From an uncultured Verrucomicrobiota bacterium (lineage in GTDB: Bacteria; Verrucomicrobiota; Verrucomicrobiia; Limisphaerales; SXQI01), in assembly GCA_964478815.1 (NCBI GenBank), contig CAYZKY010000001.1:35043-99042 (forward strand): a stretch of 64,000 nt of DNA. The letters are read 5' to 3'. Made by a program: the position numbers and the translations under genes. Numbering within the stretch: position 1 is the stretch's first letter; each line of letters opens with the position of its first letter. Positions 17,501-33,859 of the stretch are shown one piece after another. Below the pieces are notes generated by a model. It was not told the origin of the DNA, ran no database searches, and saw only the letters and a list, made by a program, of their open reading frames with translations.

Positions 17501-20500
17501 GATTCTGTCCGAGATCGCGCAGTTTCAGCCGGATGTGATTCTGAATTCGGTGCGTTCGCGCGACGCTCTGAGCGATGCGTTGAGCGTCGGATTCCGGGAC
17601 GCCACGCGCATCGCGATCGAGGGAGATTTGTGCAACATCACCCCGGCCGATCGCGCGCGCTACGATTCGGAATACACCCGACTGGTAACGATGCCCGGAA
17701 CGGCCAAAACGGAACTGGATAGTCATCGTGCCTTTCTGGAAGGGCTTGGCCTCGTGGCCGGAGAGCTGCAGCCCGTCGCGTGGACATCGCCCGACGACGA
17801 ACAGTTGGCCGATGCCTTCTTCGCGCAGGAGAAGCTGGATCCGCTGCGAACTCTGGCCTTGTTTCCCTTCGGCCAGCACGCGATTCGCGATTACGCAGGT
17901 TACGCGGAGGCGTTGCGCGGCTACGACGATTGGTCGATCCTTATCTTTGGAGGCGCTTCGTCGGAAGCCGCCTGCGGGGAACTTGGGGGCAAACTCCCCG
18001 GACGAGTCTTTAATCTGGCCGGCCGCACGACCGTCCCGGAAGCGGCGGCCCTGCTGCGGCGCTGCCGGGTCATGCTTGGCGCGGAAACCTCGGGCGCGCA
18101 TCTCGCATGCGCCGTCGGTGTGCCGAATGTCGTGCTGCTGGGAGGCGGTCATTTCGGGCGCTTCATGCCCTACAGTCCGCTGACCTCGGTGACCGTGCGC
18201 CCGCTCGAGTGTTTCGGCTGCAACTGGCAATGCCGCCACTCCCGCCCGCATTGCGTGCAGGATCTGCCGCCCCGCGTCCTGGCCGAAGCGTTGCGTCAAA
18301 CGCTGGCCACGCCATCGCCGCGCCCGCGCGTGTTCGTGGAGGCCGCCGGTCCCGAATCCGGCACGGATCGGCCGGGACGCACCGACGTCCGTGCGTATTT
18401 GACCAGCCCTGTCGAAGTGATCGAAGTGCCGGCCGATGCGTCGGAAGCGCCTCTGCCTGAAGCCGCCGCCGCATTGGTCGCCGAAGCCGAAGCGGCCCTG
18501 GTGCGCCAGGATCAGGCGAGTGCCCTGAAGTCGCTGCAAGCGGCCCGTGCCCTTGTGCCGCACCACACCGGTCTGGCGATGGCGATGGCGAACCTTCATG
18601 TGGAGGCCGGGCAATTGGGCGAGGCTCAATCGGTGCTTGAGGCGGCGACGGCGAGCGATCCGGCCAATGTTCTGCTGCATCTGTTCGTCGCGCAAATCTG
18701 CCGCGCCACCGAAGACGCGGAGGGACTCGAACGTTCGCTTTCCAAAGCCTTGCGTCTCGATCCGGCCCACCCGGATGCCCTGCGTTTGCTGGCGGAGCTC
18801 CATATCGCAGCCGGCCGATGGCAATCCGCCGGCGTTATCTACGGCAATCTGCTCAAGCGCGGCGTCGCGGATATCGAGATCATTCTTGCGCTCGGACGTT
18901 GCTTCCTCGAAACGGGACAATTGGAAGCAGCCGTGGCGTGTTGCCATGAAGCGCTCCGCCAGCATCCGAACCATCCGGGCGCCCGGGCCCAGCTTGCCCA
19001 GGTCGAAGCACGCGCCGGAAGTGCCGCCCCGCCGGCGGCGGCGAGCATTCTGCCGGAGCATGAGAAGGTCGGTTGCCGCATCTGCGGCTCGCAGAAGGGC
19101 GCTCCGGTGCGCACGCGGGCCGATATCGTGCAATGCACGGATTGCGGCACGGTCTATCTGCGCACCCGGCTGACGAAAGACGCGATGCGCCGGCTCTACC
19201 AAAGCTACGCCGACGGCGGCTCGCACATGGCCCTGCCGAAGGACGTTGCCGAAGCCGAGCGAAGCGGACTCGCGCGCGACTATTTCCTCAAAGAGATTTT
19301 GGAGTTCACGGAAGCCGGGGGCCGCTTCCTCGATGTGGGCTGCGGCTGGGGGGCGTTCCTCCTCAATGCCCGCAAAAAAGGGTTCGCTCCGCAAGGGATT
19401 GAGCTGACACGCAAATGCGTGCAATACGCCAACGAGCGCTTGCAGATCCCGGTCGTCGACACGCAATTGATCGAAACCGATCTTCCCAAAACCAGCCTGC
19501 GCGTGGTGACGATGAACCATGTTCTCGAGCATCTGCCGGAACCGCGCGCGGCCCTGGTGAAGGTGTGGGAGTCGCTCGAGGCCGGCGGAATGTTCTGTGG
19601 AATCGTGCCCAATTTCGCCTCAGCCTGTTCGACCACGCTGGGCGACCACTGGTACTGGCTCGATCCCCAGTATCACTACACTCATTTTACGCCGGCCACT
19701 CTGCGCAAGCTGCTGGAATCCGCCGGCTTCCAGGTGGAGCGGATTTACACGGCCACCGGCGATTACGGCGCGGAGAATGTCCAGAAGGCGTGTGCGACCG
19801 CGGACCCGAAACTCGCCGACACCCAGTATTTTCAACAGGAACTGAAACGGATCGAGCGGGAAGGGCGAGGCGAGGAGATTCGATTCTTCGCGCGCAAGCC
19901 CCCAGCCTCAACGCGGGCGAACCAGCCCTGGGTTTCGGTCATCGTCTCGGCCTATAACTCCGAACGCTTCCTGCGTCCGTGTCTCGAGAACCTGGCTCGG
20001 CAGACGATTTTCGAACAAACGGAAGTCATCGTCATCGACAGTGGCTCGGAACAGAACGAGCGGGCGATCGTCGAGGATTTCCAGAAGCGGTTCCCGAACA
20101 TTCGCTACATCCGGACCGAACGCGAGACGCTTTACGCCGCCTGGAATCGCGGGCTCGCTCTCGCCCGCGGACGGTACTGGGTGAATGCCAACGCCGACGA
20201 CGCGATGCGCGACGATGCGTTGCAAGTCCTGGCCGCCGGGCTCGAACGCCATCCCGACGCGCCACTCGCCTACGCGGACTGCGCCTGGACTTCCCGGCCG
20301 AACGATTGCTTCCCCTCTCAACATGTGCTGAAGGAAGTGCGCTATCCGGATTACGCCCCGGTGCAAACTCTCTTTTACTGCCTGACCGGATGCCTTCAGT
20401 TCTGGCGGACGGAGTCGCTCCGGGCCCTCGGCGGTTTCGATGCCTCGCTGCGCTACGCGGGGGATTACGAGATCACGACGCGCCTCGCCGAGCAGGGAGG

Positions 20501-23500
20501 CCACGCGCTCCATGTTCCGGACACGCTCTCGCTCTTTTACCAGAATCCGCAAGGGCTCACGCAGGGATCGACCGCTTCGCAGGCTGAGCATGCACACATC
20601 GAGGCGCGCGCGCGCGCGCGGCTATCGATCGAACGCCTGTTCCAGTGCCGGGCTGGCAGCAGCATGGGGTTGGCTCGCGCCTGGACCAGCCTGGGTCTGC
20701 ACGCGCTCGAAGTGCATGTGCCCTGGGAAAAGCAACCCATGCGGCAGGAAGCCTTCGCCTTCGAGTGCTTCCGCAAAGCCTTTCAGATCGAGCCCGAATG
20801 CCCGGAGGCCGCGCTCAACTATCTCATCGCCGCGACCAATACCGGCCAGGGTCACTTGGTGCGGGAACAGGAGAACTCCGACATCCCCACGGTGCGACAA
20901 GCCGTGGAAAAATGGCGCGCCAACGCGGCATTCGAGAAGCCCGCGGCCCTTCCGGCGGTGGTGGGCCCGAGGTTCGAATCCATCCAGGCCCATCCGGAAC
21001 TGCTGGCCGAGGAACCCGAAGCGATCCGCCCGTGGGTCGCGCGCCGTGAAGGTCGTTTTACCTATCTTTCCTCCCGCCTCATCCCGCCCCCGCAGTCCGG
21101 CGCCTATACGGAGAAGGAATTCCAGGCCATTAGCGCCGAACTGTTCCGGGCGATCAGCCAGTTTCCGAAGTTCCATGCGCATTTCGGCGGCATTGGTGAC
21201 GCGCTGGTCCTGCTCAGCACCTTTCTGGATCGGTCCCCCGGCGGCATCGTGCTCAGCTATCCGAATTCCATTCCGGCGGCGCGGTCGTTCTTCGATGCGT
21301 TTCCGGAAATCGGACAGGTCTATTTTCTGCCGCTCTCCGACAGTCCGCGGTTCCATGCCATCCTGCGCTGGATCATGCGCACGATTCCAAACTGCCTCGG
21401 CGCCGGTGCTACTCCAAAGGAAGGCTACGACGAGTGGAATGCCCGGCTCGACATCGAACGGGCTTACGGCGTGTGCAAATCGCCGCGCTGGCCGAAACGC
21501 TTCGGCTCGAACGAGGCTTCCCGCACCATCTGCCTCGCTCCCAAAGGCAGCCTGACCGGCATGGTCGGCTCGAAGAAGAATATTGTCGATCCGGCGATCT
21601 GGCCGGACCTGATCCGCATGATTCGCGACCGCGGCTTCGAGCCGGTGATCATCGGCACCCCGGACGAACGCGCCGAGTACCCCAGCCTCGACGGCTGTCT
21701 CGATCGGCGGAGCTACTCGTTCGCCGAACAGATGACGCACATCGCCCGGGCGGCGGCCCTCGTCGGCGCAGATTCTTGGGCCAAATCGTTCTCCGCCCTC
21801 GCGGGAATTCCGACCATTGTCTTCGAACCTTTGAAAGGTGCCGATTGGGCTGGGCTCAAAGATCCCTCGGATTTCGTCTTTATCGAGCCCTGGCCCAGCA
21901 TCCAGATGGTGAAGAACCTCGCGCAATGTACCGAGGCTCTGAATCGATGCGTGAAGGGTGCTCCGAAAGCCCCTCCAGCGGCGCGCGCCATCGTCGCATG
22001 GGAAGGCCCATTTGCCGGCTGCGGCAGTCTGGCGCATATCAATCGGCAGCTCGTCACCCGCCTCGAGAAGCACCGCGGCCTCTCGATCACCCGCGGTTCT
22101 CGCCCGGACGCGCAACTGACCGTCCGCCATGCCTGGCCCCCGAATTGGGCCAAACCGAAACAAGGGAAACTTGCGATCATCCAGCCTTGGGAATTCGGTT
22201 CCCTGCCGGCCGCGTGGGTCCAGCAGGCGAATCAAGTGGACGAGTTCTGGGTGCCCTCGAACTACGTTCGGCAGGTCTACCTGGATTCCGGCATCGATCC
22301 GGCCAAAGTGCATGTGGTGCCCAACGCGGTGGACCTGGAATTGTTCCACCCTGGCGTCAAACCGCGCCCGTTGCCCACGCGCAAATCGTTCAAGTTCCTC
22401 TTCGTCGGCGGCACCATTCCCCGCAAAGGCATTGACCTCTTGCTGCAGTGCTACTGCCGCACGTTCACGGCGGCTGACGACGTGGTGTTGGTCATTAAGG
22501 ATTTTGGCGGGAAGAGTATCTACGCGGGCAAAACGCTCGGGGACGAAATCCAAAGGCTTTGTTCCCACCCGAACGCTCCGGAGATCGTTTATCTCGATGA
22601 GGAACTTCCCGCCGAAAGTTTGCCGGGATTATATACGGCCTGCGATTGCCTGGTGCATCCGTATCGCGGCGAGGGCTTCGGCCTCCCGGTCCTGGAAGCC
22701 ATGGCCTGCGGCCGGCCCGTGATCGTGACGGCCGGCGGCGCGACGGATGATTTCGTGCCCGAATGCGCCTCGCTCAAGATTCCCTCGACTCGCCGCTCCC
22801 TCGGCCGATCCGTCGATGGCATTCCCACGGCCGGCGAAGCCTGGCTGCTGGAGCCGGATCCCGCCGAGTTGTCGAAACACCTCGCATGGGCCGTCTCGCA
22901 CCGCCCGGAGCTGGCCGCCAAAGGCCAGGCCGCCCGCCCACAGGCCTCGAAATACTCCTGGGAGCGCATGGCAGAACACGTCGCCACGCGTCTTGCCGCC
23001 GCCGTAGCCGCCCCTACCAATCGTCGCTCGCCGCTGGCCAACGCTGAAGCTGCGCTGGAGGCCAAGGACCTGCCCACCGCCTGGCAGCTCGCATCGGTGT
23101 CGCTCGAACGGCATCCGTTCAACCCCAGCGCTCTCCTCCTGCTGGCCAAAATCGCTCTGGCCGCCGGGGATCTGGTCAGGGCTCGTCTCTGCGCGGAACG
23201 CGCCGGGCAATTGGCCCCGTCCTGGAAAGCTCCCCGGAAATTCGCCAAGGCCCTCCCTCGCAAAGCCGAAGTGCGTGTCCATCTGCCGCCGCTGCCGCCG
23301 CTCCCCGATCCAGCCAAGCCGCGCCTGTCTGTTTGCCTGATCGTGAAAAACGAAGAGGCGTTTCTCGGGCGCTGCCTCGCTTCCGTTCGAGAAGTGGCCC
23401 ACGAGATCATCGTGGTCGATACCGGCTCCACCGATCGCACCGTGCCAATCGCCCGCGAACAGGGCGCGCAGGTTCATCAGATCGCCTGGCAGGACAATTT

Positions 23501-24929
23501 CAGCGCGGCGCGCAATGCCGCTCTTTCCCATGCGACCGGGGATTGGATACTCTCCATTGATGCGGACGAGGAGCTGCGTCCGGAAACCCGCGAAGCGCTC
23601 TCGAAGCACCTGCGCGATACAGCCGCGATCGCGTTCCGCCTGCCGATTATCGATGCCGGCCAGGAAAACCACGGCTGCAGCTATGTCCCGCGGCTGTTCC
23701 GCAACGCCCCCGGCGTCGCCTTCACCGGCTGCATCCACGAGCAAGCCTTCAGCAGCCTGGAGGAACAACGCCAGGAGTGGGGCCTCGAATTCAAGCTGGG
23801 AGCCGCTGCCTTGTTGCATCACGGTTACGCCGATTCGGTGCAAGCCTCCCGCGGCAAGATCAAGCGCAACCTCGCGTTGCTCCGCCGGGCGGCGGCAGAG
23901 TCGCCCGGGGACGCCAATCTCCTGATGAACCTCGGGTTGGAACTCGTGCGCAGCGGTGACTTGCAAGCCGGCCTCGGCCAGTACCGCGCGGCGTACGAAA
24001 CCCTGGCCCGGCGGCCGCTGGGCGGAATTCCGGCCGAACTCCGCGAGACGTTCCTGACGCAGTATGCCACCTACTCGCTCCGCGCGGCCAACTATCCGGC
24101 GATCCTCGGTCTATTCTCGACGCCGCTGGCCAAGTCGGCTCCGTTAACCGCCTCGATGCATTACCTGGCCGGGCTCGCCGGCTTCGAGACCAAGCAGTTT
24201 GCGGTGGCGGCCGGACACTTTCGCGAGACCATCTCGAAACGGAACCGCCCGGCCCTCTCGCCGATCCTGCCGCAGGTGCTCACCGCCGCCCCGGAGCATT
24301 GCCTCGCGGCCTGCCAGCACAAGCTCGGCCAAACCGGGGAAGCGGCCCGCGCCTTCCAGCAGGCCATCGCGCGCGATCCGAACAACAGCGCGCTTCACCA
24401 GGATTACGCCTGCTTCCTGCGCGACGTGGGCGAGCCCGTCGAAGCGATCAAAGTGTTGCACCAACGGATCGCCAAGGACCCGGCCGAGCAAGACTCCTGG
24501 ACGCTGGGAGCGCAAATCGCTTTGGCCCATCCGTCCATGCACGAATTCGCCGTCGAATGGACCGGAGAAGCCCTCCGCTGTCTGCCGGGGCATCCTGCGC
24601 TTTCCCTGTTCCGGGCCGAGGCGCTCCTGCTGGGACAACAGCCGGCCGAAGCCGCACGGGTGCTCGCGGATGGCTCAGTGCCTGCCTCGCCCGCCTTATC
24701 GGCCCGGCGGATCGCCTGCCAATTGCTCGCGGATGAGCCGCGGCTCGTGCTCGGCGCCGCGAACTCGGCCGAAACCAGCCAGGAGTTTTTGAAGTTCTAC
24801 CGCGTGCTGGTGCAACGAGGGGCCGCCGCGCAAATCGATGCCATTAACCAGCGTCTCGACAATCTCGCCTTGGTTCTGCCCGCCGCAGCGCAACGGCTGC
24901 AATCCGTCCTGGTCGAAGCGGCGGCTTGA
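14562..24929 (+). CDS. Giant (3455 aa) multi-domain glycosyltransferase/methyltransferase/pyruvyltransferase/TPR fusion protein; candidate flagellin glycan assembly enzyme
   Basis: One uninterrupted frame with recognisable modules in series (approximate aa positions).
- 25-305: pyruvyltransferase-like (TTRLHASLYANGHGIPGIII).
- 380-595: FkbM methyltransferase (VFDVGAHHGKYT, IDYLKLDVEGAE).
- 610-860: GT-A-like (QIDADE).
- 910-1245: GT9-like (ILFVRTDSIGDAVL, GAETSGAHLACAVGVPNVVL).
- 1300-1480: TPR.
- 1500-1775: CxxC...CxxC ribbon plus class I SAM methyltransferase (FLDVGCGWGAF, NHVLEHLPEP).
- 1790-2000: GT2 (VSVIVSAYNSERFL, NADDAM).
- 2205-2465: second GT9-like module.
- 2470-2810: GT4 (GEGFGLPVLEAMACGRPVI).
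- 2820-2890: TPR.
- 2920-3095: GT2 (LSVCLIVKNEEAFL, SIDADEEL).
- 3100-3455: TPR. Confidence 0.85.
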   Translation: MTPPANSSGASLLSDAPVSRPVRHFIISGTTLWNPGDDFVRGGVIRALRSSFPDASLNFHFYNFAEDQFPKSKFRGVGNEVGPSDLERMKGFVDGIIVAGLSAGHEIKDLYRWILESGLEDRVYLIGAGYENPYCAEHLAQEPEAAIFRKARLLIGRTERRPAMLGEGYRHLPCPALLSVPEVKTLPANQRIERTGFSIQLPHEAGVTNQTCDAAFHQLAVEILLERARLGPVEVVVHHKSEYFYFAKLLEGTGIPVRYSSFVEDLHDIYRGFDLVVTTRLHASLYANGHGIPGIIINRSERHTAALDRFDHSRCAADRPSFDAEFARIENLGLSRIAKELAAFKANLLGEYVGLIRPAFAKCHPQQDSSAYEFDSEKKEQRLVRALVRPGMTVFDVGAHHGKYTKLFGLLAGDAGRVFAFEPTPESADRLQSMVDREALDNTTLTRAVVHETVGTANLHRFPERYSSWNGLGQPSMEDPEDPSKLVALVDSVEVPAVTLDAFCAARQIDRIDYLKLDVEGAEIIALRGAAGLLRRQAIGHLQFEVSRKMLEGLGTKAGEVFAYLASFGYECHAIREDGSIGEVCADSDSFYENYIALPAKKPADLPVHFFTIVLNGQPFLPWHIGVLRQLPFRWHWHIVEGVAELNHDTGWSRKTGGRIPEAQHSGGLSIDGTREYLDQLQRAFPGQVTIYRPPGGRFWDGKREMVNAPLPHITEQGLLWQIDADELWTVSQIVRARQLFLAHPEKTAAFFYCHFFVGPDRVITSRDTYGNNSAYEWLRVWRYRPGDSWAAHEPPRLMRPVPGGQAIDVCALDPLRQAETEACGLVFQHFAYATPAQVQFKQDYYGYAGAVERWEQLQQVTQFPARLADYFPWVKDGATVDRCDRSGVTPLLRLDNTLLGDAAKSLEIPERILFVRTDSIGDAVLAASMLEPLARQFPSAKIAVLCQEHVAPLYAACPLIASIICFKRAEVETPAGLKQILSEIAQFQPDVILNSVRSRDALSDALSVGFRDATRIAIEGDLCNITPADRARYDSEYTRLVTMPGTAKTELDSHRAFLEGLGLVAGELQPVAWTSPDDEQLADAFFAQEKLDPLRTLALFPFGQHAIRDYAGYAEALRGYDDWSILIFGGASSEAACGELGGKLPGRVFNLAGRTTVPEAAALLRRCRVMLGAETSGAHLACAVGVPNVVLLGGGHFGRFMPYSPLTSVTVRPLECFGCNWQCRHSRPHCVQDLPPRVLAEALRQTLATPSPRPRVFVEAAGPESGTDRPGRTDVRAYLTSPVEVIEVPADASEAPLPEAAAALVAEAEAALVRQDQASALKSLQAARALVPHHTGLAMAMANLHVEAGQLGEAQSVLEAATASDPANVLLHLFVAQICRATEDAEGLERSLSKALRLDPAHPDALRLLAELHIAAGRWQSAGVIYGNLLKRGVADIEIILALGRCFLETGQLEAAVACCHEALRQHPNHPGARAQLAQVEARAGSAAPPAAASILPEHEKVGCRICGSQKGAPVRTRADIVQCTDCGTVYLRTRLTKDAMRRLYQSYADGGSHMALPKDVAEAERSGLARDYFLKEILEFTEAGGRFLDVGCGWGAFLLNARKKGFAPQGIELTRKCVQYANERLQIPVVDTQLIETDLPKTSLRVVTMNHVLEHLPEPRAALVKVWESLEAGGMFCGIVPNFASACSTTLGDHWYWLDPQYHYTHFTPATLRKLLESAGFQVERIYTATGDYGAENVQKACATADPKLADTQYFQQELKRIEREGRGEEIRFFARKPPASTRANQPWVSVIVSAYNSERFLRPCLENLARQTIFEQTEVIVIDSGSEQNERAIVEDFQKRFPNIRYIRTERETLYAAWNRGLALARGRYWVNANADDAMRDDALQVLAAGLERHPDAPLAYADCAWTSRPNDCFPSQHVLKEVRYPDYAPVQTLFYCLTGCLQFWRTESLRALGGFDASLRYAGDYEITTRLAEQGGHALHVPDTLSLFYQNPQGLTQGSTASQAEHAHIEARARARLSIERLFQCRAGSSMGLARAWTSLGLHALEVHVPWEKQPMRQEAFAFECFRKAFQIEPECPEAALNYLIAATNTGQGHLVREQENSDIPTVRQAVEKWRANAAFEKPAALPAVVGPRFESIQAHPELLAEEPEAIRPWVARREGRFTYLSSRLIPPPQSGAYTEKEFQAISAELFRAISQFPKFHAHFGGIGDALVLLSTFLDRSPGGIVLSYPNSIPAARSFFDAFPEIGQVYFLPLSDSPRFHAILRWIMRTIPNCLGAGATPKEGYDEWNARLDIERAYGVCKSPRWPKRFGSNEASRTICLAPKGSLTGMVGSKKNIVDPAIWPDLIRMIRDRGFEPVIIGTPDERAEYPSLDGCLDRRSYSFAEQMTHIARAAALVGADSWAKSFSALAGIPTIVFEPLKGADWAGLKDPSDFVFIEPWPSIQMVKNLAQCTEALNRCVKGAPKAPPAARAIVAWEGPFAGCGSLAHINRQLVTRLEKHRGLSITRGSRPDAQLTVRHAWPPNWAKPKQGKLAIIQPWEFGSLPAAWVQQANQVDEFWVPSNYVRQVYLDSGIDPAKVHVVPNAVDLELFHPGVKPRPLPTRKSFKFLFVGGTIPRKGIDLLLQCYCRTFTAADDVVLVIKDFGGKSIYAGKTLGDEIQRLCSHPNAPEIVYLDEELPAESLPGLYTACDCLVHPYRGEGFGLPVLEAMACGRPVIVTAGGATDDFVPECASLKIPSTRRSLGRSVDGIPTAGEAWLLEPDPAELSKHLAWAVSHRPELAAKGQAARPQASKYSWERMAEHVATRLAAAVAAPTNRRSPLANAEAALEAKDLPTAWQLASVSLERHPFNPSALLLLAKIALAAGDLVRARLCAERAGQLAPSWKAPRKFAKALPRKAEVRVHLPPLPPLPDPAKPRLSVCLIVKNEEAFLGRCLASVREVAHEIIVVDTGSTDRTVPIAREQGAQVHQIAWQDNFSAARNAALSHATGDWILSIDADEELRPETREALSKHLRDTAAIAFRLPIIDAGQENHGCSYVPRLFRNAPGVAFTGCIHEQAFSSLEEQRQEWGLEFKLGAAALLHHGYADSVQASRGKIKRNLALLRRAAAESPGDANLLMNLGLELVRSGDLQAGLGQYRAAYETLARRPLGGIPAELRETFLTQYATYSLRAANYPAILGLFSTPLAKSAPLTASMHYLAGLAGFETKQFAVAAGHFRETISKRNRPALSPILPQVLTAAPEHCLAACQHKLGQTGEAARAFQQAIARDPNNSALHQDYACFLRDVGEPVEAIKVLHQRIAKDPAEQDSWTLGAQIALAHPSMHEFAVEWTGEALRCLPGHPALSLFRAEALLLGQQPAEAARVLADGSVPASPALSARRIACQLLADEPRLVLGAANSAETSQEFLKFYRVLVQRGAAAQIDAINQRLDNLALVLPAAAQRLQSVLVEAAA

Positions 24930-26237: not shown

Positions 26238-29162
26238 TTACGGTCTCGGCTTGGCCCACACCATCGGCGTCTGCCGCGTGATCTTCGCCAGCGAACGTCG
26301 GTTTCCGTCCACTAGCTCGATCTCGATCGTGTTCGCCCGCACGAGCTCCGTCGGGCTTCCCGATTCGGGCTCGACCTTGACATCGAGGAGCTGCAATCCC
26401 CGGCCGGCCGAAACATCCCGCGACGTGGTGGCGAAATAGTTGGCGCTGGCCGGATTGGCGGAATCGTAAACTTTCACCGTCAGCCGGCCCCGGCCGGACT
26501 GGAGGTTATATTTCACGCTCACATACCCGTTGGAAGCGTCGTTCTGCTTGAAGTCCTCCAGTTCGATCGTATCGCCGCTCGCCTGCGCCGCCGCGCCCGC
26601 CGCGCCCGGAGCGCGCCACATCAGCAGCATCGTGGCCGCGAAAAGGTTCAGCTTCTTCGCCGCCGCCTTTTCCGTCAGGTAAACCAACACTTGATCGGTT
26701 GAGAAATTCGCGGCGGTGGGGAGGCCGGTCGGCGGCTGAAATTTCACCGGGAAAAGCATGAAGTTCCGCCGGCTCTTCCCCAGCTCGCCGGGAACATTGG
26801 AAAAATAGCTGGCCACCTGCGGTTCGGATTGTCGCACCACGTCCACGCCCAACATCGGAGCGCTCAGTGAATCGCGATATTCGAACTCCACGCCGATCGT
26901 CATCTGGCTGCGATCGAGGCTGCGATTGACGACATCGACATTGGTGACCTTGCTTTTCAACCCGCGCGCCAGCTCCAGCGAAGGAGCGGGGCCGGAGGGA
27001 ACCGTGGATTTGGGCGGCTCCGCGGCGGGTGTCGAAAGTTTGTTCGCCTCCAGCTCGGCTTTGGCCTGGGCCACCGCCTCCTTGTACGCCTTGTCCACCG
27101 CCTGCTTGCGGGCGGCCGCTTCCGCTTCCGCTTTTTGCTGAGCTAAGCGGGCTTCCTCGGCCAGGCGTTTGGCATCGGCTTCGGCTTTGAGGCGGGCTTC
27201 GTCGCGAGCCTTTTCCTCAGTGGCGCGCTTCGCCTCGGCCAGGCGCTTTTCTTCCGCCAGGCGCTTTGATTCGGCTTCGGCCTTCAGGCGGGCGTTGTCG
27301 AGCGCTTTGGCTTCCGCCAGGGCCTTGGCTTCCGCCACGCGGCGCGCGTTCTCCTCGGCTTCCGCTTTTTTGCGGGCTTCTTCGCGAGCCCGGGCTTCGG
27401 CGAGCGCTTTCTCCTCAGCCTGCCGCTTGGCCTCGGCTTCGGCTTTCAGCCGGGCCTCTTCACGGGCCCGAACCTCCGCCGCGAGGCGGGCCTTTTCCTG
27501 TTCGGCTTGCTGGCGGCGCGCTTCTTCTTCGGCGAGACGCTTGGCTTCGGCGAGGCGTTTCGCTTCCGCTTCCGCCTTGATCCGCGCGGCTTCGCGGGCC
27601 TGCGCTTCGGCCAAGGCCTTTGCCTCGGCCTCCTTGCGGGCTTTTTCTTCGGTCTCGGCCTTTTGGCGGGCTTGCTCGCGCGCGAGGGCTTCGGCGCGTG
27701 CCCTGGCTTCGGCGAGGCGTTTTTCTTCGGCCAGGCGGGCGGCCTCGGCCTCCGCTTTCTTGCGGGCTTCCTCCCGCACGCGCGCTTCGGCGGCCAGCCG
27801 TTCCTTTTCCTTTTCTTCCCGCTCGCGCCGGGCCTTCTCGTCGGCCAGCCGTTTCTCCTCCGCCAGCCGTTTGACCTCGGCTTCGGCTTTCAGACGGGCC
27901 GCTTCGCGCATCTGGGCTTCGGCCAGGGCTTTCGCCTCCGCGTCCCGCCGTGCTTTCTCGGCAGCCTCGGCCTGGCGCCGCGCTTCTTCGCGCGCTTTCG
28001 CCTCGGCGAGAGCCTTGGCTTCCGCCGCTCGCTTTTCCTCCGCCAGCCGGGCCAGTTCCGCTTGCTTGCGCGCCGCCTCGCGGGCCTGCGCCTCGGCGGC
28101 CAGGCGGGCTTTCTCCTGTTCCTCGCGCTGGCGGCGCGCGGTTTCCTCGGCCAGCCGCTTTTCCTCGGCCAGCCGGGCGGTTTCCACTTCGGCTTTGCGC
28201 CGCGCTTCCTCGCGCGCTTTCGCTTCGGCGAGCGCCTTCGCCTCCGCCTCCTTGCGCGCCATCTCTTCCGCTTCGGCCTTGCGCCGCGCTCCCTCGCGGG
28301 CCAGCGCTTCAGCCTTGGCCTTCTCCTCGGCTAATCGTTTCTCCTCGGCCAGCCGCCGCGCTTCCGCCAGCGACCGCAAGCGGTCCTCCTCCAGGGTCTT
28401 CGCTTGAGCAAGCCGTTGTTCCTCCGCGCGCCGTTGTTCCGCCGCCAGGCGTTTGGCTTCCGCCTCCGCCTGCTGGCGCGCTTGCTCGCGCGCCGCCGCT
28501 TCCGCCCGCGCCTTTTCTTCCGCTTGCTGCCGCGCCTTCGCTTCGGCTTCCGCCTGCCGACTCGCTGCTCCGCGAGCTTCGGCTTCCTGGCGCGCCTTCG
28601 CCGCCGCCATTTGCTTCTCGGGCGTCGTCGCCGAACCGCCGCTCGGCCCCACGCCCAAAGGCGCAAGGCCCGGCGCCGTCGGCGGCGGCGCATTCGGGCT
28701 GCCCCACTTGATCGTCTTCAGAAAGGGCACCGCCCCGATCATCGCGGTGCCGGTTTGATTGAGGAAAAGGATCCGGATGCGGTCCGTGGTGAACATGGGC
28801 GGCACCCCCGCCTCGTCGTTGAAATACTTCACCATCAGCGTGACGGTCCCTTTCCCGCGCCCGATCGTCACGAAATCCGACCCGAACCAGGTCGAAATCC
28901 CGGCTTGATCCTTCTTGCCGATCACCGGAACCACCCGGGCCACCGGGCCGCCGAATCCGTCATACGTATAATCGAGGGTCATCCGCACCTCGGTCCCGTC
29001 GGGCGTCTGCCCCAGAATGCGGAGATTGGTGGCGCCGGTCATTTCCTGATCGGTGCCGCGGAAGGGATCGCTCGGGTTGCCTAGCGGCTGGGCCAGCAAC
29101 GGGAACAAGCCGCTCAATTGCAGCACAAGGAGCCAAATCGTCAGACGATGCAGAAGTTTCAT
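26238..29162 (-). CDS. Exported 974-aa protein with a central Ala/Glu/Lys/Arg helix of about 530 aa, flanked by beta-rich modules
   Basis: Start taken at MKLLHRLTIWLLVLQLSGLFPLLAQP (signal-peptide-like), whose ATG overlaps the lacI-family stop (ATGA). The central region is uninterrupted A/E/K/R with EAKALAEA and RLAEEKRLA each recurring five times. Globular ends are about 150 aa (N-terminal) and 265 aa (C-terminal). Confidence 0.75.
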   Translation of the reverse strand: MKLLHRLTIWLLVLQLSGLFPLLAQPLGNPSDPFRGTDQEMTGATNLRILGQTPDGTEVRMTLDYTYDGFGGPVARVVPVIGKKDQAGISTWFGSDFVTIGRGKGTVTLMVKYFNDEAGVPPMFTTDRIRILFLNQTGTAMIGAVPFLKTIKWGSPNAPPPTAPGLAPLGVGPSGGSATTPEKQMAAAKARQEAEARGAASRQAEAEAKARQQAEEKARAEAAAREQARQQAEAEAKRLAAEQRRAEEQRLAQAKTLEEDRLRSLAEARRLAEEKRLAEEKAKAEALAREGARRKAEAEEMARKEAEAKALAEAKAREEARRKAEVETARLAEEKRLAEETARRQREEQEKARLAAEAQAREAARKQAELARLAEEKRAAEAKALAEAKAREEARRQAEAAEKARRDAEAKALAEAQMREAARLKAEAEVKRLAEEKRLADEKARREREEKEKERLAAEARVREEARKKAEAEAARLAEEKRLAEARARAEALAREQARQKAETEEKARKEAEAKALAEAQAREAARIKAEAEAKRLAEAKRLAEEEARRQQAEQEKARLAAEVRAREEARLKAEAEAKRQAEEKALAEARAREEARKKAEAEENARRVAEAKALAEAKALDNARLKAEAESKRLAEEKRLAEAKRATEEKARDEARLKAEADAKRLAEEARLAQQKAEAEAAARKQAVDKAYKEAVAQAKAELEANKLSTPAAEPPKSTVPSGPAPSLELARGLKSKVTNVDVVNRSLDRSQMTIGVEFEYRDSLSAPMLGVDVVRQSEPQVASYFSNVPGELGKSRRNFMLFPVKFQPPTGLPTAANFSTDQVLVYLTEKAAAKKLNLFAATMLLMWRAPGAAGAAAQASGDTIELEDFKQNDASNGYVSVKYNLQSGRGRLTVKVYDSANPASANYFATTSRDVSAGRGLQLLDVKVEPESGSPTELVRANTIEIELVDGNRRSLAKITRQTPMVWAKPRP
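27036..28619 (-). repeat. Coding low-complexity / higher-order repeat region (A/E/K/R helix)
   Basis: GC-rich, GCN/GAR/AAR/CGN-dominated DNA encoding imperfect higher-order repeats, with motif recurrences spaced roughly 30-105 aa apart. It generates long spurious mirror ORFs on the plus strand. Confidence 0.85.
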
Positions 29163-30217
29163 AGTTCCGGCCTCTCCATTTCCACAAGATAGTTCTCGGG
29201 CGCTTCCTGTAAAGCGGCTGGCCCCGTGCTGGCGCGAATCAATAACTCCGCGGGCAGCCGCCGCGATTGGGCCGGCTCCCCTCGCAACAACCGCCACAGC
29301 GTCTGCACGGCCGCCGCGCCCAGCCGGAATTTCGGCTGCCGCACGGTGCTCAGCGGGACGCGAAAGTGCTCGCCCGCCGGCACGTTTCCAAAGCCGATGA
29401 TCGACACCTCGGCCGGAATCTTGAGCCCCTGCTTCATCAGCACATCCGCCGCCCCGAGCGCGGATTGATCGCTCGCCGCCTGCACCGCCGAGGCCCGCGA
29501 TCGTTCATCCAGCATTTGCAATGCCGCTTTTTCGCCCTCCTCCGGGCTGGCTCCGGCATTGAAAACCAGCCGCTCGTCGAACGGCAGCCCCGCGTCTCGC
29601 AACGCGCGCCGGTACCCTTCGAACCGCTCTTGCGCCCACGGCGCCGCCGCCGGACCCGCGAAGAATGCGATCCGCCGATGCCCCAATTCGATCAGGTGTT
29701 GCGTGGCTTGCGCGCTGGCCAGGACATCTTCGGTTTCGACATTGGCGAACGTTTCGCAGAACGGCGCTTTATGCCCGAGAATCACGCACGGAGTCCCCGA
29801 AAGCGCAATCTCTTGATAGACCGGCGCTTGCGGAGCCAGCCGGTAGACGGGCGCGACGATCAGCCCATCCACCCGCCGGGCCAGCAGCCGCCGCAGTTGC
29901 ACATCTTCCCGGCCGGTCTCGTTCAGCGTTTGCGCCAGCACCGCCGCGAAGCCGAGTTCGAACGCCTCCTGCTCGATGGCCTGAACGGCCCGCGCCAATA
30001 TCGGATGCGTCACCGCCGGCACCACCAGGCCGATCAGCTTTGTCGTGCGCGTGCGCAAGCCTTGCGCCGTCAAATCGGGCGAATAGCCCATCTGCTGGGC
30101 CAGTTGGCGAATCCGCGCCTTGGTCCCCTCCGAGACGTCCGGCGCATTGCGCATGACTTTCGACACCGTCATGACGGATACGCCGGCCTGCGCCGCGATA
30201 TCTTTCAAACGCACCAT
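29159..30217 (-). CDS. LacI/GalR-family transcriptional regulator
   Basis: 352 aa. N-terminal HTH MVRLKDIAAQAGVSVMTVSKVMRNAPDVSEGTKARIRQLAQQMGYSPD followed by a periplasmic-binding-protein-like effector domain. Confidence 0.85.
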   Translation of the reverse strand: MVRLKDIAAQAGVSVMTVSKVMRNAPDVSEGTKARIRQLAQQMGYSPDLTAQGLRTRTTKLIGLVVPAVTHPILARAVQAIEQEAFELGFAAVLAQTLNETGREDVQLRRLLARRVDGLIVAPVYRLAPQAPVYQEIALSGTPCVILGHKAPFCETFANVETEDVLASAQATQHLIELGHRRIAFFAGPAAAPWAQERFEGYRRALRDAGLPFDERLVFNAGASPEEGEKAALQMLDERSRASAVQAASDQSALGAADVLMKQGLKIPAEVSIIGFGNVPAGEHFRVPLSTVRQPKFRLGAAAVQTLWRLLRGEPAQSRRLPAELLIRASTGPAALQEAPENYLVEMERPEL

Positions 30218-30221
30218 GGCA

Positions 30222-31106
30222 TCACAAATTCGAGCCGCTCCAGTTCAGCTTCTGCCGCAGCGTCCCGAAGAACGAGCTGCCGGGCAGCCGCGCCAGCCGG
30301 ATCGATTTGCCGCCTCGGCGAATGCGCACGGCATCGCCCGGTGCGATGGGCAATTGCACCTGTCCATCCGCCGTGAGAAACACCTCGAGCTTCTGCGGAG
30401 CCACGGTGACCTCCACCACGGAATCCAGACTGACGATGACCGACCGGTTCGAAAGGGTATGCGGACAGATGGGCGTAATCGTAAAGACGGACGCGGTCGG
30501 GCTCACCACCGCCCCGCCCGCCGCCAGCGAATAGGCCGTCGACCCGGTCGGCGACGACACGATCAATCCATCGCACCGATAACGGGTCAATGCTTCGCCA
30601 TTGACCTTGACGTCCAGCTCGATCAACCGCGACGTGGCCCCGCGGCCGATCACAAAATCGTTGAGCGCCAACTGGGAGATGTGGCGGTTGGCTCCCTCGC
30701 CGGTGACCTCGATCATCGAGCGTTCTTCGATGGAAAACTCGCCCGCGCAAATCTTCGGCAGCTCGCGCGGCAGGTCTGCGACCGGCATCGCCGTCAAAAA
30801 GCCCAGCCCCCCGATATTGACGCCGAGCAGCGGCGTTCGCGCCCCGACGGCCGCCCGCGCCGCGCTCAGCATCGTGCCATCGCCGCCGAACACGAGCAGC
30901 AAGTCGCAATGCTTCGCCACCGCGGAAGTTCCCGCGAATGTCTCCACCTCTAATCCTGCCAGCGCGGCCGCGCCCGCCTCGCACACCACCGTTTTCCCCT
31001 GCCGGCGCAGCAGCGCCACCGCCTGCCGGATCGTCCGGGCGGCGGACACTTTCTCCGGGTTGGCGACAATCCCGATCCGCTCCACCGCTCTAGCCCTGTT
31101 TTTCAA
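30222..31106 (-). CDS. nadK: NAD kinase
   Basis: 294 aa. LLLVFGGDGTMLSAAR (GGDGT motif) and NRSVIVS...G..V.I pattern. Overlaps the tlyA 3' end by 17 nt. Confidence 0.88.
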   Translation of the reverse strand: MKNRARAVERIGIVANPEKVSAARTIRQAVALLRRQGKTVVCEAGAAALAGLEVETFAGTSAVAKHCDLLLVFGGDGTMLSAARAAVGARTPLLGVNIGGLGFLTAMPVADLPRELPKICAGEFSIEERSMIEVTGEGANRHISQLALNDFVIGRGATSRLIELDVKVNGEALTRYRCDGLIVSSPTGSTAYSLAAGGAVVSPTASVFTITPICPHTLSNRSVIVSLDSVVEVTVAPQKLEVFLTADGQVQLPIAPGDAVRIRRGGKSIRLARLPGSSFFGTLRQKLNWSGSNL

Positions 31107-31845
31107 GCAATACGAGAAATTCCTTGTTTCCCGCCGGGCCCAGCAGGGGCGACTCGGTCACTCCCACCCAGCGCACCCCCGCCATTTGGCCGGCAAACTC
31201 CTGCAATTCCGCGATCACGCGCTCGTGGATCACAGGGTCTTTAATGACCCCGCCCCCTTTGTCCACTTCGGCTTTCCCGGCTTCGAATTGAGGCTTGATC
31301 AGTGCGATGAGTTTACCGGGCACAGCCAGCAAAGCAATCGCGGGTGGCAGGACCTTCGTCAGGGAAATGAACGAACAATCGACCACCGCCAGTCCGAAAG
31401 GGACGAAGGGCTGGGCGAAGCTCCCGGGTCCCAACCCCCGGGCGTTCTGCTTTTCCATTACCACCACCCGGGGATCAATCCGCAATTTCCACGCCAGTTG
31501 CCCTTGTCCGACATCCACCGCGAAGACGCGCGCCGCGCCATGCTGCAGCAGGCAATCCGTGAACCCGCCCGTCGATGCCCCCAGGTCCAGCGCCACCAGG
31601 CCCGACGGATCGACCGCGAAGTGCCGCAACGCGTGCTCCAGCTTGTGCCCCCCCCGGCTCACATAACGCTCCGGCTCCTCCAGCGAGAGCTGGTCGGCCT
31701 CCCGGACCGGGTCGCTCGGCTTGCCGGCCCGCCGATCGTTGATCCGCACCTTCCCCGCCAGGATCGCGCGTTGCGCCTTCTCCCGGCTCTCGCTCAACCC
31801 TCGCGCGACCAGCGCCTGGTCGAGCCGCTGTTTACCCCCGCTCAT
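31090..31845 (-). CDS. tlyA: TlyA-family rRNA 2'-O-methyltransferase (hemolysin A-like)
   Basis: S4 domain RLDQALVARGLSESREKAQRAILAGKVRINDR and FtsJ-type SAM motif LDLGASTGGFTDCLLQHGAARVFAVDVG. Start taken at the internal ATG 31845. Confidence 0.85.
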   Translation of the reverse strand: MSGGKQRLDQALVARGLSESREKAQRAILAGKVRINDRRAGKPSDPVREADQLSLEEPERYVSRGGHKLEHALRHFAVDPSGLVALDLGASTGGFTDCLLQHGAARVFAVDVGQGQLAWKLRIDPRVVVMEKQNARGLGPGSFAQPFVPFGLAVVDCSFISLTKVLPPAIALLAVPGKLIALIKPQFEAGKAEVDKGGGVIKDPVIHERVIAELQEFAGQMAGVRWVGVTESPLLGPAGNKEFLVLLEKQG

Positions 31846-31858
31846 GGCACACCTTTCC

Positions 31859-32050
31859 TCATCTCGATCCGGACCACGCCGTAAAGCCGATCGACCGCGG
31901 CTGCTTAAACTCATCGCATCCCCGCTCGACCATGCTCAAGATTCTAACGAGGCTTGCGCCAGGTCGTCGAGCAACTCGCGTGCAGGGAACCGGAGCCCTC
32001 CCCAAAAATTTTCGCTCTCGGATGAGCTTGATTTTCCGGTACTTAGCCAT
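31859..32050 (-). CDS. Possible small Cro/CI (XRE)-type HTH protein, 63 aa
   Basis: IKLIRERK...TRVARRPGASLVRILSMVERG loosely fits the XRE helix-turn-helix pattern (..LA...G.S...IS..ErG). It ends 13 nt before tlyA. The start abuts an AT-rich promoter-like region. The call is weak and the ORF could be non-coding. Confidence 0.3.
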   Translation of the reverse strand: MAKYRKIKLIRERKFLGRAPVPCTRVARRPGASLVRILSMVERGCDEFKQPRSIGFTAWSGSR

Positions 32051-32053
32051 AAA

Positions 32054-32132
32054 AGTCTACATATTGTAAATTCTAAAACTTGACTATGCACCCAATCTAT
32101 GCGATACTCTAGGCCAGAACAAAATGTAGACT
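32054..32132. repeat. 9-bp inverted repeat AGTCTACAT ... ATGTAGACT bracketing a promoter-like AT-rich segment
   Basis: Arms at 32054-32062 and 32124-32132 are exact reverse complements, about 70 bp centre to centre, flanking the TTGACT-17-GATACT element. Confidence 0.6.
32080..32108 (+). promoter_or_regulatory. Sigma-70-like promoter TTGACT-N17-GATACT
   Basis: -35 at 32080-32085, 17-nt spacer, -10 at 32103-32108. It lies in the lowest-GC part of the island and points toward the repeat arrays and the esterase gene. Confidence 0.35.
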
Positions 32133-32289
32133 AAATGCCATGAACACGCCGCCCATCCTGGTCCTCTATCCCCCTCCAGATTGGGTGCTCCTGTCCTCCG
32201 TCTCCACAACATGCCAAATCATCCTTCCCCGCGCTCGTTGTTCCGCACTCTCCGCCACCCGCCGGCCACGGCGTTCCGGCGCGCCACCA

Positions 32290-32373
32290 CCCTTGAAACG
32301 CCCTTGAAACGCCCTTGAAACGCCCTTGAAACGACCCTGAAACGCTTGAAACGTTTCAAGCAAACTTGAAACG
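32290..32373 (+). repeat. Tandem 11-bp array (4x CCCTTGAAACG plus 1x ACCCTGAAACG), then the palindrome CTTGAAACGTTTCAAG, then one more CTTGAAACG
   Basis: Read directly. Units start at 32290, 32301, 32312, 32323 and 32334. The palindrome is at 32345-32360. An extra copy is at 32365-32373, and a further CTGAAACG at 32428-32435. Confidence 0.95.
32345..32360. promoter_or_regulatory. Perfect 16-bp palindrome CTTGAAACGTTTCAAG; candidate LacI/GalR-family operator
   Basis: AAAC|GTTT core with a central CG step, as in LacI-family operators such as the PurR box. A LacI-family regulator is encoded in the operon that starts next to this island. Confidence 0.45.
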
Positions 32374-32566
32374 CCACCCTTGATTACCAACGACTTATGC
32401 AAAATGGCCTGCCAAATTTCAAAAAAACTGAAACGCGTGAAATTTCCGCGCCATTTTCACTGAGCCAGCCGGCCCGGAACTCCTCCGTCGGACCGGCCCT
32501 TCGCAACTCGCCTCCAGCCCTGCCGCCAAGCTCAGCCCCTCGATGGGCGATTGCCCATGCACGCTC

Positions 32567-32636
32567 ATACACAAAAATACACACCGCCATACACGAAAAT
32601 ACACGCTGTCGTACACATAAATACACGAAAATACAC
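32567..32636 (+). repeat. Helically phased array of seven (A)TACAC cores with a 22-bp super-period
   Basis: Cores start at 32567, 32577, 32589, 32599, 32611/12, 32621 and 32631 (spacing 10/12/10/12/10/10). Most are preceded by an A-run (AAAATACAC). Confidence 0.9.
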
Positions 32637-32827
32637 ATTCGAAATCGGCCTGTTCCAGTGCGTAAATCATTTATCATTAGATGCTTAGGACGATTCATGA
32701 TGCCGCTGACACCTTCCACGCCATACGCAGACCTCCATCCCGGCCGTTCCCGGTGCGTCTGCCATAGTTTTTCTGACCCGCGCTTGTCGCCAGGCTCCCT
32801 GGCAGGTTACTCTCCCTGCATCGCCCT

Positions 32828-33859
32828 ATGAAAATAGCTTGGTCTCTCGCATGCGCCGTAGGCGTGAATTGCCTCAACGCCTTTGCTCAAACACCGCCCT
32901 CCACGGCCACCAATCAGCCGCCCCGCGCCGGAGCCACCCGTGACCCCCGCATGGATGCCTACTACAAGCTGGGCCCGGACTCGCTTCCGCAAGAGGGAGT
33001 TCCCAAAGGCCAGCTCCACGGCCCCAAAATCATCCCGAGCGAAGCCTACCCCGGCACCCAGCACACCTACTGGGTCTACGTCCCAGCTCAGTATCGAGCA
33101 AACGAACCCACCGCCTTGATCGTCTTCAATGACGGCCAGGCCTTCAAGCACGAGCCCGGCGACGTCCAGGCCCACCACGTCCTCGACAATCTGATTTACC
33201 GTCGCGAGATCCCGGTCATGCTCGGCGTCTTCATCAACCCCGGCCGGCGGCCCGATCAGCCCGAACCCACTCCGCAAAACTGGGGCGATCGCGATACGAA
33301 TCGCCCGGAAGAGTACAATGCCCTGAACGACAAGTATGCCCGTGTCATCGTGGATGAATTGCTCCCGGCCCTGCGCAAGGAGTACAACATCTCCCCCAAC
33401 CCGGAGCATCGGGCCATCGGCGGAGCCAGCTCCGGCGCCATCGCCGCCTTTACCGTCGCCTGGCATCGCCCGGACGAATTCCGCAAGGTGTTCTCCTTCA
33501 TCGGCAGCTACGTCAATCTCGGCAACCGCGGCGGCCACACCTATCCTGATCTCATCCTCCAAAGCGAAAAGAAGCCGTTGCGCGTCTACCTTCAAGACGG
33601 GCGAAACGATAATCGCCGGCCCGCCCGCGGCGGCGATCCCAACAGCGTCGACTGGTTTTACCAGAATGTCCGCATGGCCGATGCCTTGACCAAAAAGGGC
33701 TACGACCTCAATTACACCTGGGGCATGGGCAACCACGGCCAGAAGCACGGCGGAGCCATCTTCCCCGAAATCATGCGCTGGCTCTGGCGCGATGCTCAGC
33801 CCGTCTCCACCGACCGCGATAACCAGGTCGAACGCACCTTCCGGCCGCCCATCCCCTGA
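32828..33859 (+). CDS. Secreted esterase (putative esterase / esterase D-like alpha/beta hydrolase)
   Basis: 343 aa, signal peptide, nucleophile elbow [11 protein letters not shown], then [17 protein letters not shown] and a late HGQKHGG. Confidence 0.8.

Follow-up and report, generated by a model that had tools for sequence, protein, structure and literature searches.

Short repeats, direct or inverted, that are bound cooperatively by small repressors are known from the omega protein heptads of pSM19035, the Fur hexamer arrays and the metboxes of MetJ. In these systems many contiguous boxes of 6-8 bp, in mixed orientation and variable copy number, allow spread from a strong site, and the boxes lie end to end at 6-8-bp periods, overlapping the promoter that they regulate. 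OmpR/PhoB sites, as well as integrase arm-type and Xis/Cox sites, have another layout in which a heptamer and a free 4-nt spacer recur in helical register. Here we describe a cluster of eight to nine copies of the 8-bp box CTTGAAAC in the DNA of an uncultured Verrucomicrobiota bacterium (GTDB lineage Limisphaerales; SXQI01). The cluster lies in a stretch of 64,000 nucleotides (contig CAYZKY010000001.1, positions 35,043 to 99,042; hereafter the window, numbered from its first letter), in the intergenic gap between tlyA and the gene of a secreted esterase. Phased short-repeat binding arrays are a known kind and the best reading is that this array belongs among them. We tentatively propose that it is a multi-site docking platform for a sequence-specific protein, nucleated at a palindrome within the array.

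The array begins with four exact copies of CCCTTGAAACG (32290-32333), followed by the variant unit ACCCTGAAACG (32334-32344); together these five direct 11-bp units (32290-32344, plus strand) carry boxes 1 to 5. Directly 3' of the variant unit lies CTTGAAACGTTTCAAG (32345-32360), and further boxes follow as CTTGAAACG at 32365-32373 and CTGAAACG at 32428-32435. A model that had read the letters without database searches (the sequence-only reading) had reported the tandem units, four exact and one variant, the palindrome and the copies at 32365 and 32428, and all of these are present. Two of its details need correction. The palindrome is perfect but is 18 bp long rather than 16 (GCTTGAAAC joined to GTTTCAAGC, 32344-32361), and the in-phase 11-bp spacing holds for five units but not for the step from unit 5 to unit 6, which is 9 bp. 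Copies of TGAAAC start at 32294, 32305, 32316, 32327, 32338, 32347, 32367 and 32429, with the inverted copy starting at 32353. Thus six direct boxes, five at 11-bp spacing and one at 9 bp, are followed by inverted box 7, which abuts direct box 6 and so forms the 18-bp palindrome. Direct box 8 (CTTGAAACG, plus strand) begins 4 bp past the inverted box and, as RNA, could pair with box 7 in a 9-bp stem with a CAAA loop. The ninth box sits in the loop of an imperfect hairpin (32401-32457, plus strand; AAAATGGC/GCCATTTT and AAATTTCA/TGAAATTT); with the TTTT run behind it, this hairpin may serve as a weak terminator.

Several counts set the array apart from its surroundings. Tandem Repeats Finder reports 32290-32353 with a period of 11, 6.0 copies, 90% matches and a score of 100, which is among the top three of the 54 rows returned for the window. 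The word TTGAAACG occurs nine times in the 64 kb against 1.97 expected (none of 100 shuffles gave nine), and seven of these nine occurrences fall within the 81 bp from 32293 to 32373. Perfect 18-bp palindromes are expected by chance about 0.24 times in 64 kb. Elsewhere in the window CTTGAAAC-like words are at chance frequency and the array is unique. Because independent public metagenome assemblies, from runs X1 and X4, contain it too, it is not an artefact of assembly.

Comparison with close relatives indicates which parts of the array are constrained. The same locus was recovered from two biofilter metagenomes (X1, X4) for a relative about 92% identical, strain X, in which tlyA is about 91% identical (89 of 1031 nt differ). 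The strain X array has one 11-nt unit fewer, and the sole substitution in the 133 nt from 32280 to 32412 is an A>C at 32334. Divergence elsewhere is 26/217 plus four indels in 32063-32279, 7/87 in 32413-32499 and 89/1031 in the tlyA coding region. The lower divergence of the array is significant by Fisher's test against the flanks (p = 6e-5) and against tlyA coding sequence (p = 2e-4). The conserved stretch includes a 3' flank (32374-32412, plus strand) with a degenerate box, CCACCCTTGATTACC, which shows no substitutions in strain X, whereas adjoining non-coding DNA differs by 8-12%. Additionally, a more diverged variant in the same two metagenomes reads CTTGAAAC-AAAA-CTTGAAAC-AAA-CTTGAAACGTTTCAAG-AAA-CTTGAAACG, its final box being also written CTTGAAACGCC. 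The boxes and the 16-bp core of the palindrome are kept, the spacers have changed from CCC to AAA, and the right flank has diverged, with homology still recognizable. Boxes kept while spacers change is the pattern expected if selection sees the boxes. We conclude that the array is real, non-random and under purifying constraint on its boxes but not on its spacers.

About 185 bp upstream of the array, and directed toward it, lies a sigma-70-type promoter, TTGACT-17-(TG)CGATACT (32080-32108, plus strand). Three indels in this promoter in strain X (+GG, -1 and -1) cancel, leaving the 17-bp spacer and both hexamers intact. In a Joint Genome Institute (JGI) contig, L191, nadK-tlyA and the esterase gene are 91-93% identical and meet in the same divergent junction, yet about 660 bp, corresponding to window positions 31880-32540 (ends approximate; compare L191 978-1055), are missing. 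The segment, which is present in the window and in strain X, contains the promoter, a C-rich and G-poor leader, the array, the palindrome and the hairpin. By this comparison the array is part of an accessory module that is not required by either flanking gene. Its ends show no terminal inverted repeats or target duplications, the best end-to-end alignments being at noise level. In more distant relatives boxes are absent as well. Three genomes with TlyA orthologues of 74-78% identity (L001-L003) keep tlyA-nadK-lacI, have other upstream neighbors and carry no box upstream; TGAAACG is missing altogether from L001 and, in L002 and L003, occurs only as isolated single copies away from the tlyA upstream region. 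Esterase orthologues of 77-82% identity (L192, L193) are found in other genomic contexts without boxes.

Taken together, we propose that a protein would bind the palindrome with high affinity and then spread cooperatively over the direct boxes, which lie roughly along one helical face. A nucleoprotein block formed in this way would lie downstream of the module's own promoter, which reads into the array and whose spacing is preserved through compensating indels, and would stop or modulate transcription toward the esterase gene (32828-33859). The number of units would drift through replication slippage. Protein binding, cooperativity and the effect on transcription are the parts of this proposal that we infer. 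A binding array for a protein other than the neighboring LacI-family member was one option raised by the sequence-only reading, and it is the one we now favor, still with less than even confidence.

Several points weigh against this proposal. Because L191 has the same tlyA-esterase junction without the module, the array is dispensable for both flanking genes. No regulator of fitting specificity is encoded among the neighboring genes examined. With the only recognizable promoter 185-290 bp upstream of it and the esterase start codon 455 bp downstream, the array is in an unusual position for a classical operator or activator site. Furthermore, the four identical units could reflect recent slippage and homogenization rather than selection, and the low divergence could in part be concerted evolution if the array is a copy of a dispersed repeat, a concern raised by the depth of run X1 over the array, which is described below.

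With the omega, Fur and MetJ arrays the locus shares many contiguous short boxes, mixed orientation and variable copy number, and the proposed spread from a strong site would be a further likeness. It differs in its 11-bp period with a 3-4-nt spacer, in lying about 185 bp past a promoter, and in having no adjacent ribbon-helix-helix or Fur-type gene. A conserved 7-bp core followed by a variable 4-bp spacer, repeated directly at an 11-bp period, is the arrangement of an OmpR/PhoB-type site, and the array shares it. No response regulator was found among the neighboring genes examined, although one may be encoded elsewhere; no integrase or tRNA gene is near, and the array does not seem to be placed at a -35 element or an attachment site. 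By inspection, the spacing of TGAAAC to any CGT or TTGC element does not fit an extracytoplasmic function (ECF) sigma or sigma-54 promoter. Literature searches for the motif returned nothing relevant.

It is unlikely, in our estimate, that the palindrome is instead an ordinary operator of a LacI-family protein, either the neighbor or a paralogue elsewhere in the genome, for the esterase or the tlyA operon. The direct units would then be functionless slippage products of one half-site, and the one-unit difference in copy number between strains is what slippage predicts. The sequence-only reading had recognized the AAAC-GTTT core with a central CG as the LacI/GalR operator form and had placed a LacI-family gene in the adjacent operon, and both observations are borne out. 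The palindrome is perfect and even, exceeds 14 bp, has a central CG and carries a GAAAC-GTTTC core like that of the operators of RbsR and PurR in E. coli. With the operators of PurR, RbsR and CcpA (cre) the locus thus has in common an even palindrome, a central CG, the AAAC-GTTT core and a LacI-family gene within 2.2 kb. The neighbor (29159-30217, minus strand; PF00356 at 1.2e-16 and PF13377 at 2e-33) is the single LacI-family protein encoded in the window. It is a complete member with hinge residues A51 and Leu54, the latter being the residue that inserts at the central CG, and its closest solved structures are those of RbsR, CcpA and PurR. Additionally, the downstream genes look carbohydrate-active. 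As CytR shows, a member of this family is able to work with repeats that are direct or inverted and variably spaced (PMC9422980).

The half-site, however, does not agree with the residues that would read it. The neighbor has the recognition helix S-V15-M16-T-V-S-K20; its L001-L003 orthologues share this head (V/I15, M16, K20). For operator positions 5 and 4, Table S1 of PMC2978694 gives TT or AT in all seven M16 classes and GA with V-G, T-G or R-V. The palindrome has GA at positions 5/4 and T at NT-6, whereas M16 predicts T at position 4, with the proviso that the V-M class is absent from the table, which was drawn from the TVSR subgroup while the neighbor has TVSK. The site is also absent where the regulator is kept: no box is found near the operon in L001-L003, despite the same reading head, and L191 lacks the palindrome. 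Neutral slippage products would not be conserved as the direct boxes are in the diverged variant with its changed spacers, and an extra array of direct half-sites is itself a departure from LacI/GalR operators. Related arrays from soil have facing boxes with other center spacings, such as TTGAAAC-GG-GTTTCAA in L120, which misfit LacI geometry. Thus, the neighboring LacI-family protein is unlikely to be the binder of this array, because its reading head mismatches the site, boxes are absent where the operon is conserved, and the array is missing in L191. The earlier tie between array and regulator is not supported, on three counts: V15/M16/K20 faces GA, three relatives that keep the operon have no box, and a relative about 93% identical has no array. 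It is important to realize that a perfect LacI-looking palindrome beside a LacI gene need not belong to that gene. As a separate observation, the order tlyA-nadK-lacI (window 29159-31914; also L001-L003) is conserved across Verrucomicrobiae with a near-invariant head, S(V/I)MTVSK, an unusual partnership for a sugar-type repressor.

It is distinctly unlikely that the array belongs to an intergenic repeat of a selfish or dispersed kind, similar to MITEs (miniature inverted-repeat transposable elements) or repetitive extragenic palindromic (REP) sequences or a decayed mobile module, with no host function at this locus. The 660-bp module is present or absent among relatives that are about 92% identical. 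In run X1 the depth over the array is about 98 against 11-17 beside it, and several of the piled-up contigs have different flanks; that community therefore has box arrays elsewhere, be it at further loci or in further genomes. The sequence-only reading had stated that its view would be refuted if the 11-mer array were a dispersed repeat unrelated to this locus. In part this is what was found, since arrays of the same box occur at other loci of the same metagenome and are dispersed in other Verrucomicrobia.

The clearest dispersed form comes from lake Verrucomicrobia. The scan of species genomes described below and a metagenome scan for CCTTGAAACG-N-CCTTGAAACG, which returned 41 loci, revealed an element of about 100 nt, here called Family A (L011, L063, L072, L086, L116, L122-L154; for example L137 1305-1420). 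Family A keeps an 11-nt period throughout and consists of GGGAAC, three to five CTTGAAACGA(C/T)C units, CTTGATACTAC, CTTGCTACCAC and about three GGAGRG-type units. It occupies six or more distinct intergenic loci in lake metagenomes with sharp borders, three of them in the metagenome-assembled genome JAPLUA01, and its sites include the interval between glgP and pgm and the regions upstream of an alpha-L-fucosidase gene and of an O-antigen-ligase-like gene. A search of Rfam with 20 related loci gave no match for Family A. Like the window, Family A has three to five CCTTGAAACGA boxes at an 11-nt period that decay, in its case to TTGATAC/TTGCTAC-type units and in the window to CCCTTGATTAC. Neither the GGGAAC head nor the three GGAGRG tail units turned up in the window, however, and Family A has no palindrome. 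A model of 11 Family A copies matched the window at positions 12-63, the boxes, only (40.5 bits, E = 9e-12), and the window array is therefore an array of the same box and not a copy of the element. Four soil contigs (L120, L128, L136, L160) carry the box in both orientations and at other spacings, joined to long GC-rich, REP-like hairpins.

Against an origin as a dispersed repeat, the module has neither the terminal inverted repeats and target-site duplications of a MITE or insertion sequence nor a transposase. Only the boxes of the lake element, neither its head nor its tail, match the window. The array is unique there with other single boxes at chance level, and it is far better conserved than its surroundings. 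There is a slim chance that the CTTGAAAC boxes at an 11-nt period mark an undescribed, lineage-wide system of the Verrucomicrobiota, in which a filament-forming DNA- or RNA-binding protein would act as a global regulator or organizer and the length of the arrays would be tuned by slippage. If true, the system would span both the accessory module and the dispersed 100-nt elements that lake Verrucomicrobia carry before their pgm, fucosidase and O-antigen-ligase genes.

We likewise give little credence to the possibility that the element acts as RNA. A transcript from the promoter at 32080-32108 would be either the leader of the esterase messenger RNA or a small RNA that runs for about 340 nt up to the hairpin at 32401-32457, and single-stranded UUGAAAC would bind or titrate an RNA-binding protein. 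The conserved promoter does point into the array, and the plus strand from 32130 to 32640 is C-rich and G-poor (GC skew -0.36). The boxes are predicted to be unpaired on this strand, the ninth box lies in a hairpin loop, and the only substitution of strain X in the hairpin stem, A>G at 32453, keeps pairing as G-U on the plus strand only. Furthermore, TGAAACG arrays in other genomes are co-oriented with the downstream gene in 59 cases and opposed in 27 (p = 7e-4, from a crude caller of open reading frames (ORFs) and among the loci listed). In contrast, Rfam 15 gives no match at gathering score in the window, and relaxed thresholds return noise only (E >= 1) in 31850-32900. Folding is no better than that of shuffled sequences (z = -1.2 and -1.5), and the hairpin makes a weak terminator. 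From the promoter to the array, 175 nt have diverged at a rate like that of neutral sequence. The only RNA runs with the 11-mer (X15, X16) hold satellite-like repeats of unrelated marine organisms. In these two marine metatranscriptomes very abundant short contigs consist of CCCTTGAAAC(A/G)-type 11-nt tandem repeats, which align to window positions 32288-32343; the 11-mer thus also exists elsewhere as a transcribed satellite-like repeat. The matches were rejected as transcripts of the window locus, being CCCTTGAAAC(A) repeats of other organisms.

A broader survey placed the docking array that we favor among similar arrays. Among 185,579 species genomes, a scan for three consecutive TGAAACG-N4 units found at least 116 loci, those listed belonging to very diverse bacteria and a few archaea. 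Four permuted heptamers served as controls in viral contigs, where they gave 14, 2, 2 and 33 loci against 14 for TGAAACG. These control counts indicate that 11-bp-period arrays are generic: heptamer arrays of this period, with many different cores, are common and widespread in prokaryotes and phages. The idea of TGAAACG-N4 as one universal motif was rejected on the same counts, and no protein family recurs beside the arrays. The arrays fall into two classes, perfect tandem repeats and identical cores with differing spacers. Differing spacers (at least two differences) were seen in 36 of the 116 listed genome loci, 5 of 14 viral TGAAACG loci and 6 of 27 loci of the control GTCAAGA, against 0 of 15 for the other three controls. 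Arrays with identical cores and variable spacers look like protein-binding sites. Boxes in both orientations also occur in related soil-metagenome arrays, for example L120 and L128. The control GTCAAGA turned out to represent another phage array family (L197-L229), in which an inverted TCTTGAC comes after three or four GTCAAGA-N4 units.

Some TGAAACG arrays are linked to integrases. In two homologous phage loci, L161 (1564-2013) and L162 (948-2274), three TGAAACG cores lie intact between a tyrosine integrase gene and tRNA-Gly(tcc), and their spacers are fully diverged and unrelated; arm-type sites for proteins are typically found in such a place. Another array lies beside tRNA-Gly in Hoeflea (L012, 44-172), and a further one beside a primase-helicase gene in L167. 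The arrays of L161, L162 and L012 are probably arm-type or excisionase sites of a family of integrative elements. The window array has the same architecture and core as these integrase-linked arrays but none of their gene contexts; the setting expected of integrase arm-type sites, with an integrase gene and an attachment core (often a tRNA) beside the repeats, is seen in L161, L162 and L012 and not in the window.

The sequence-only reading had also offered a centromere- or iteron-like array. The iterons of the R1 parC/ParR type II centromere are reportedly 11 bp long, and like them the window array (period 11, 6.0 copies) has five direct repeats next to a promoter. R1 parC has two sets of five iterons (PMC2241845), a number matched by the array's run of five, but the window has a single repeat set rather than two around a promoter, includes an inverted copy, has a chromosomal context and has no parM/parR or parA/parB beside it on a mobile replicon. 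An iteron-type origin would be expected to have a rep gene, an AT-rich unwinding element and DnaA boxes, and no rep gene was found among the neighbors; a replication origin was rejected for want of DnaA boxes and a dnaA gene. It is therefore highly improbable that the array is a plasmid-type centromere, a set of replication iterons or of integrase arm-type sites, whether as a remnant of a mobile replicon or in the service of one, since the flanking genes are chromosomal housekeeping genes (tlyA, nadK, scpA/B, pheA, lhr), no par, rep or int gene is nearby, the window has no tRNA, no DnaA box lies within 15 kb, and neither 72,556 plasmids nor 50,697 phage records contain a match to the segment.

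The gap that contains the array (31846-32827) is non-coding and about 980 bp long. It is bounded on one side by the divergent tlyA-nadK-lacI operon on the minus strand (31090-31845, 30222-31106 and 29159-30217), and on the other by the secreted PF00756 esterase on the plus strand (32828-33859). Farther out, scpA, scpB, pheA and the gene of an Lhr-type helicase have housekeeping roles, and none of the neighboring genes examined encodes an integrase, a par or rep product or a response regulator. Homologues assign the organism to Verrucomicrobiae, with one esterase relative labeled Limisphaerales. A local GC-skew trough shows no sustained switch, and a search of 31800-32900 gave nothing promoter-like immediately downstream of the array. 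Coding by the array itself was rejected, as a 78-aa minus-strand ORF across it has no homologue among 5.8 billion proteins; a 63-aa ORF elsewhere in the gap (31859-32050) is frameshifted in strain X.

Additional features were seen in the gap and beyond. A second, unrelated phased array at 32566-32636, about 190-260 bp upstream of the esterase start, consists of seven ATACAC hexamers in ATACAC-N4-ATACAC pairs spaced by about 22 bp. It differs from the CTTGAAAC array in being retained in both L191 and strain X, where it is longer by one 10-nt unit, and it looks like the conserved site through which the esterase promoter is regulated. The sigma-70-type promoter is flanked by a 14-nt inverted repeat, AGTCTACATATTGT at 32054-32067 and ACAAAATGTAGACT at 32119-32132, which may be an operator; AGTCTACATT also occurs upstream of tlyA in the relative L001 (1341-1350). 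A 1019-aa secreted protein (26238-29297, minus strand) has a long Ala/Glu/Lys/Arg-rich region derived from 18- and 42-bp DNA repeats; its gene overlaps the end of lacI and has no Pfam match. A single ORF of 3455 codons (14562-24929, plus strand) shows a coding-like pattern of GC content at third codon positions (GC3). The longest perfect palindrome of the window, the 20-bp CGATCTGAGCGCTCAGATCG at 46727-46746, lies within the Lhr-type helicase gene.

Regulation in the Verrucomicrobiota is almost unexplored, and the array described here provides an entry point. A conserved array of variable copy number, with a clear putative high-affinity site and natural variants that have or lack it, is a handle for fishing out a DNA-binding protein. 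The array would also be useful for asking how the number of auxiliary sites tunes regulation.

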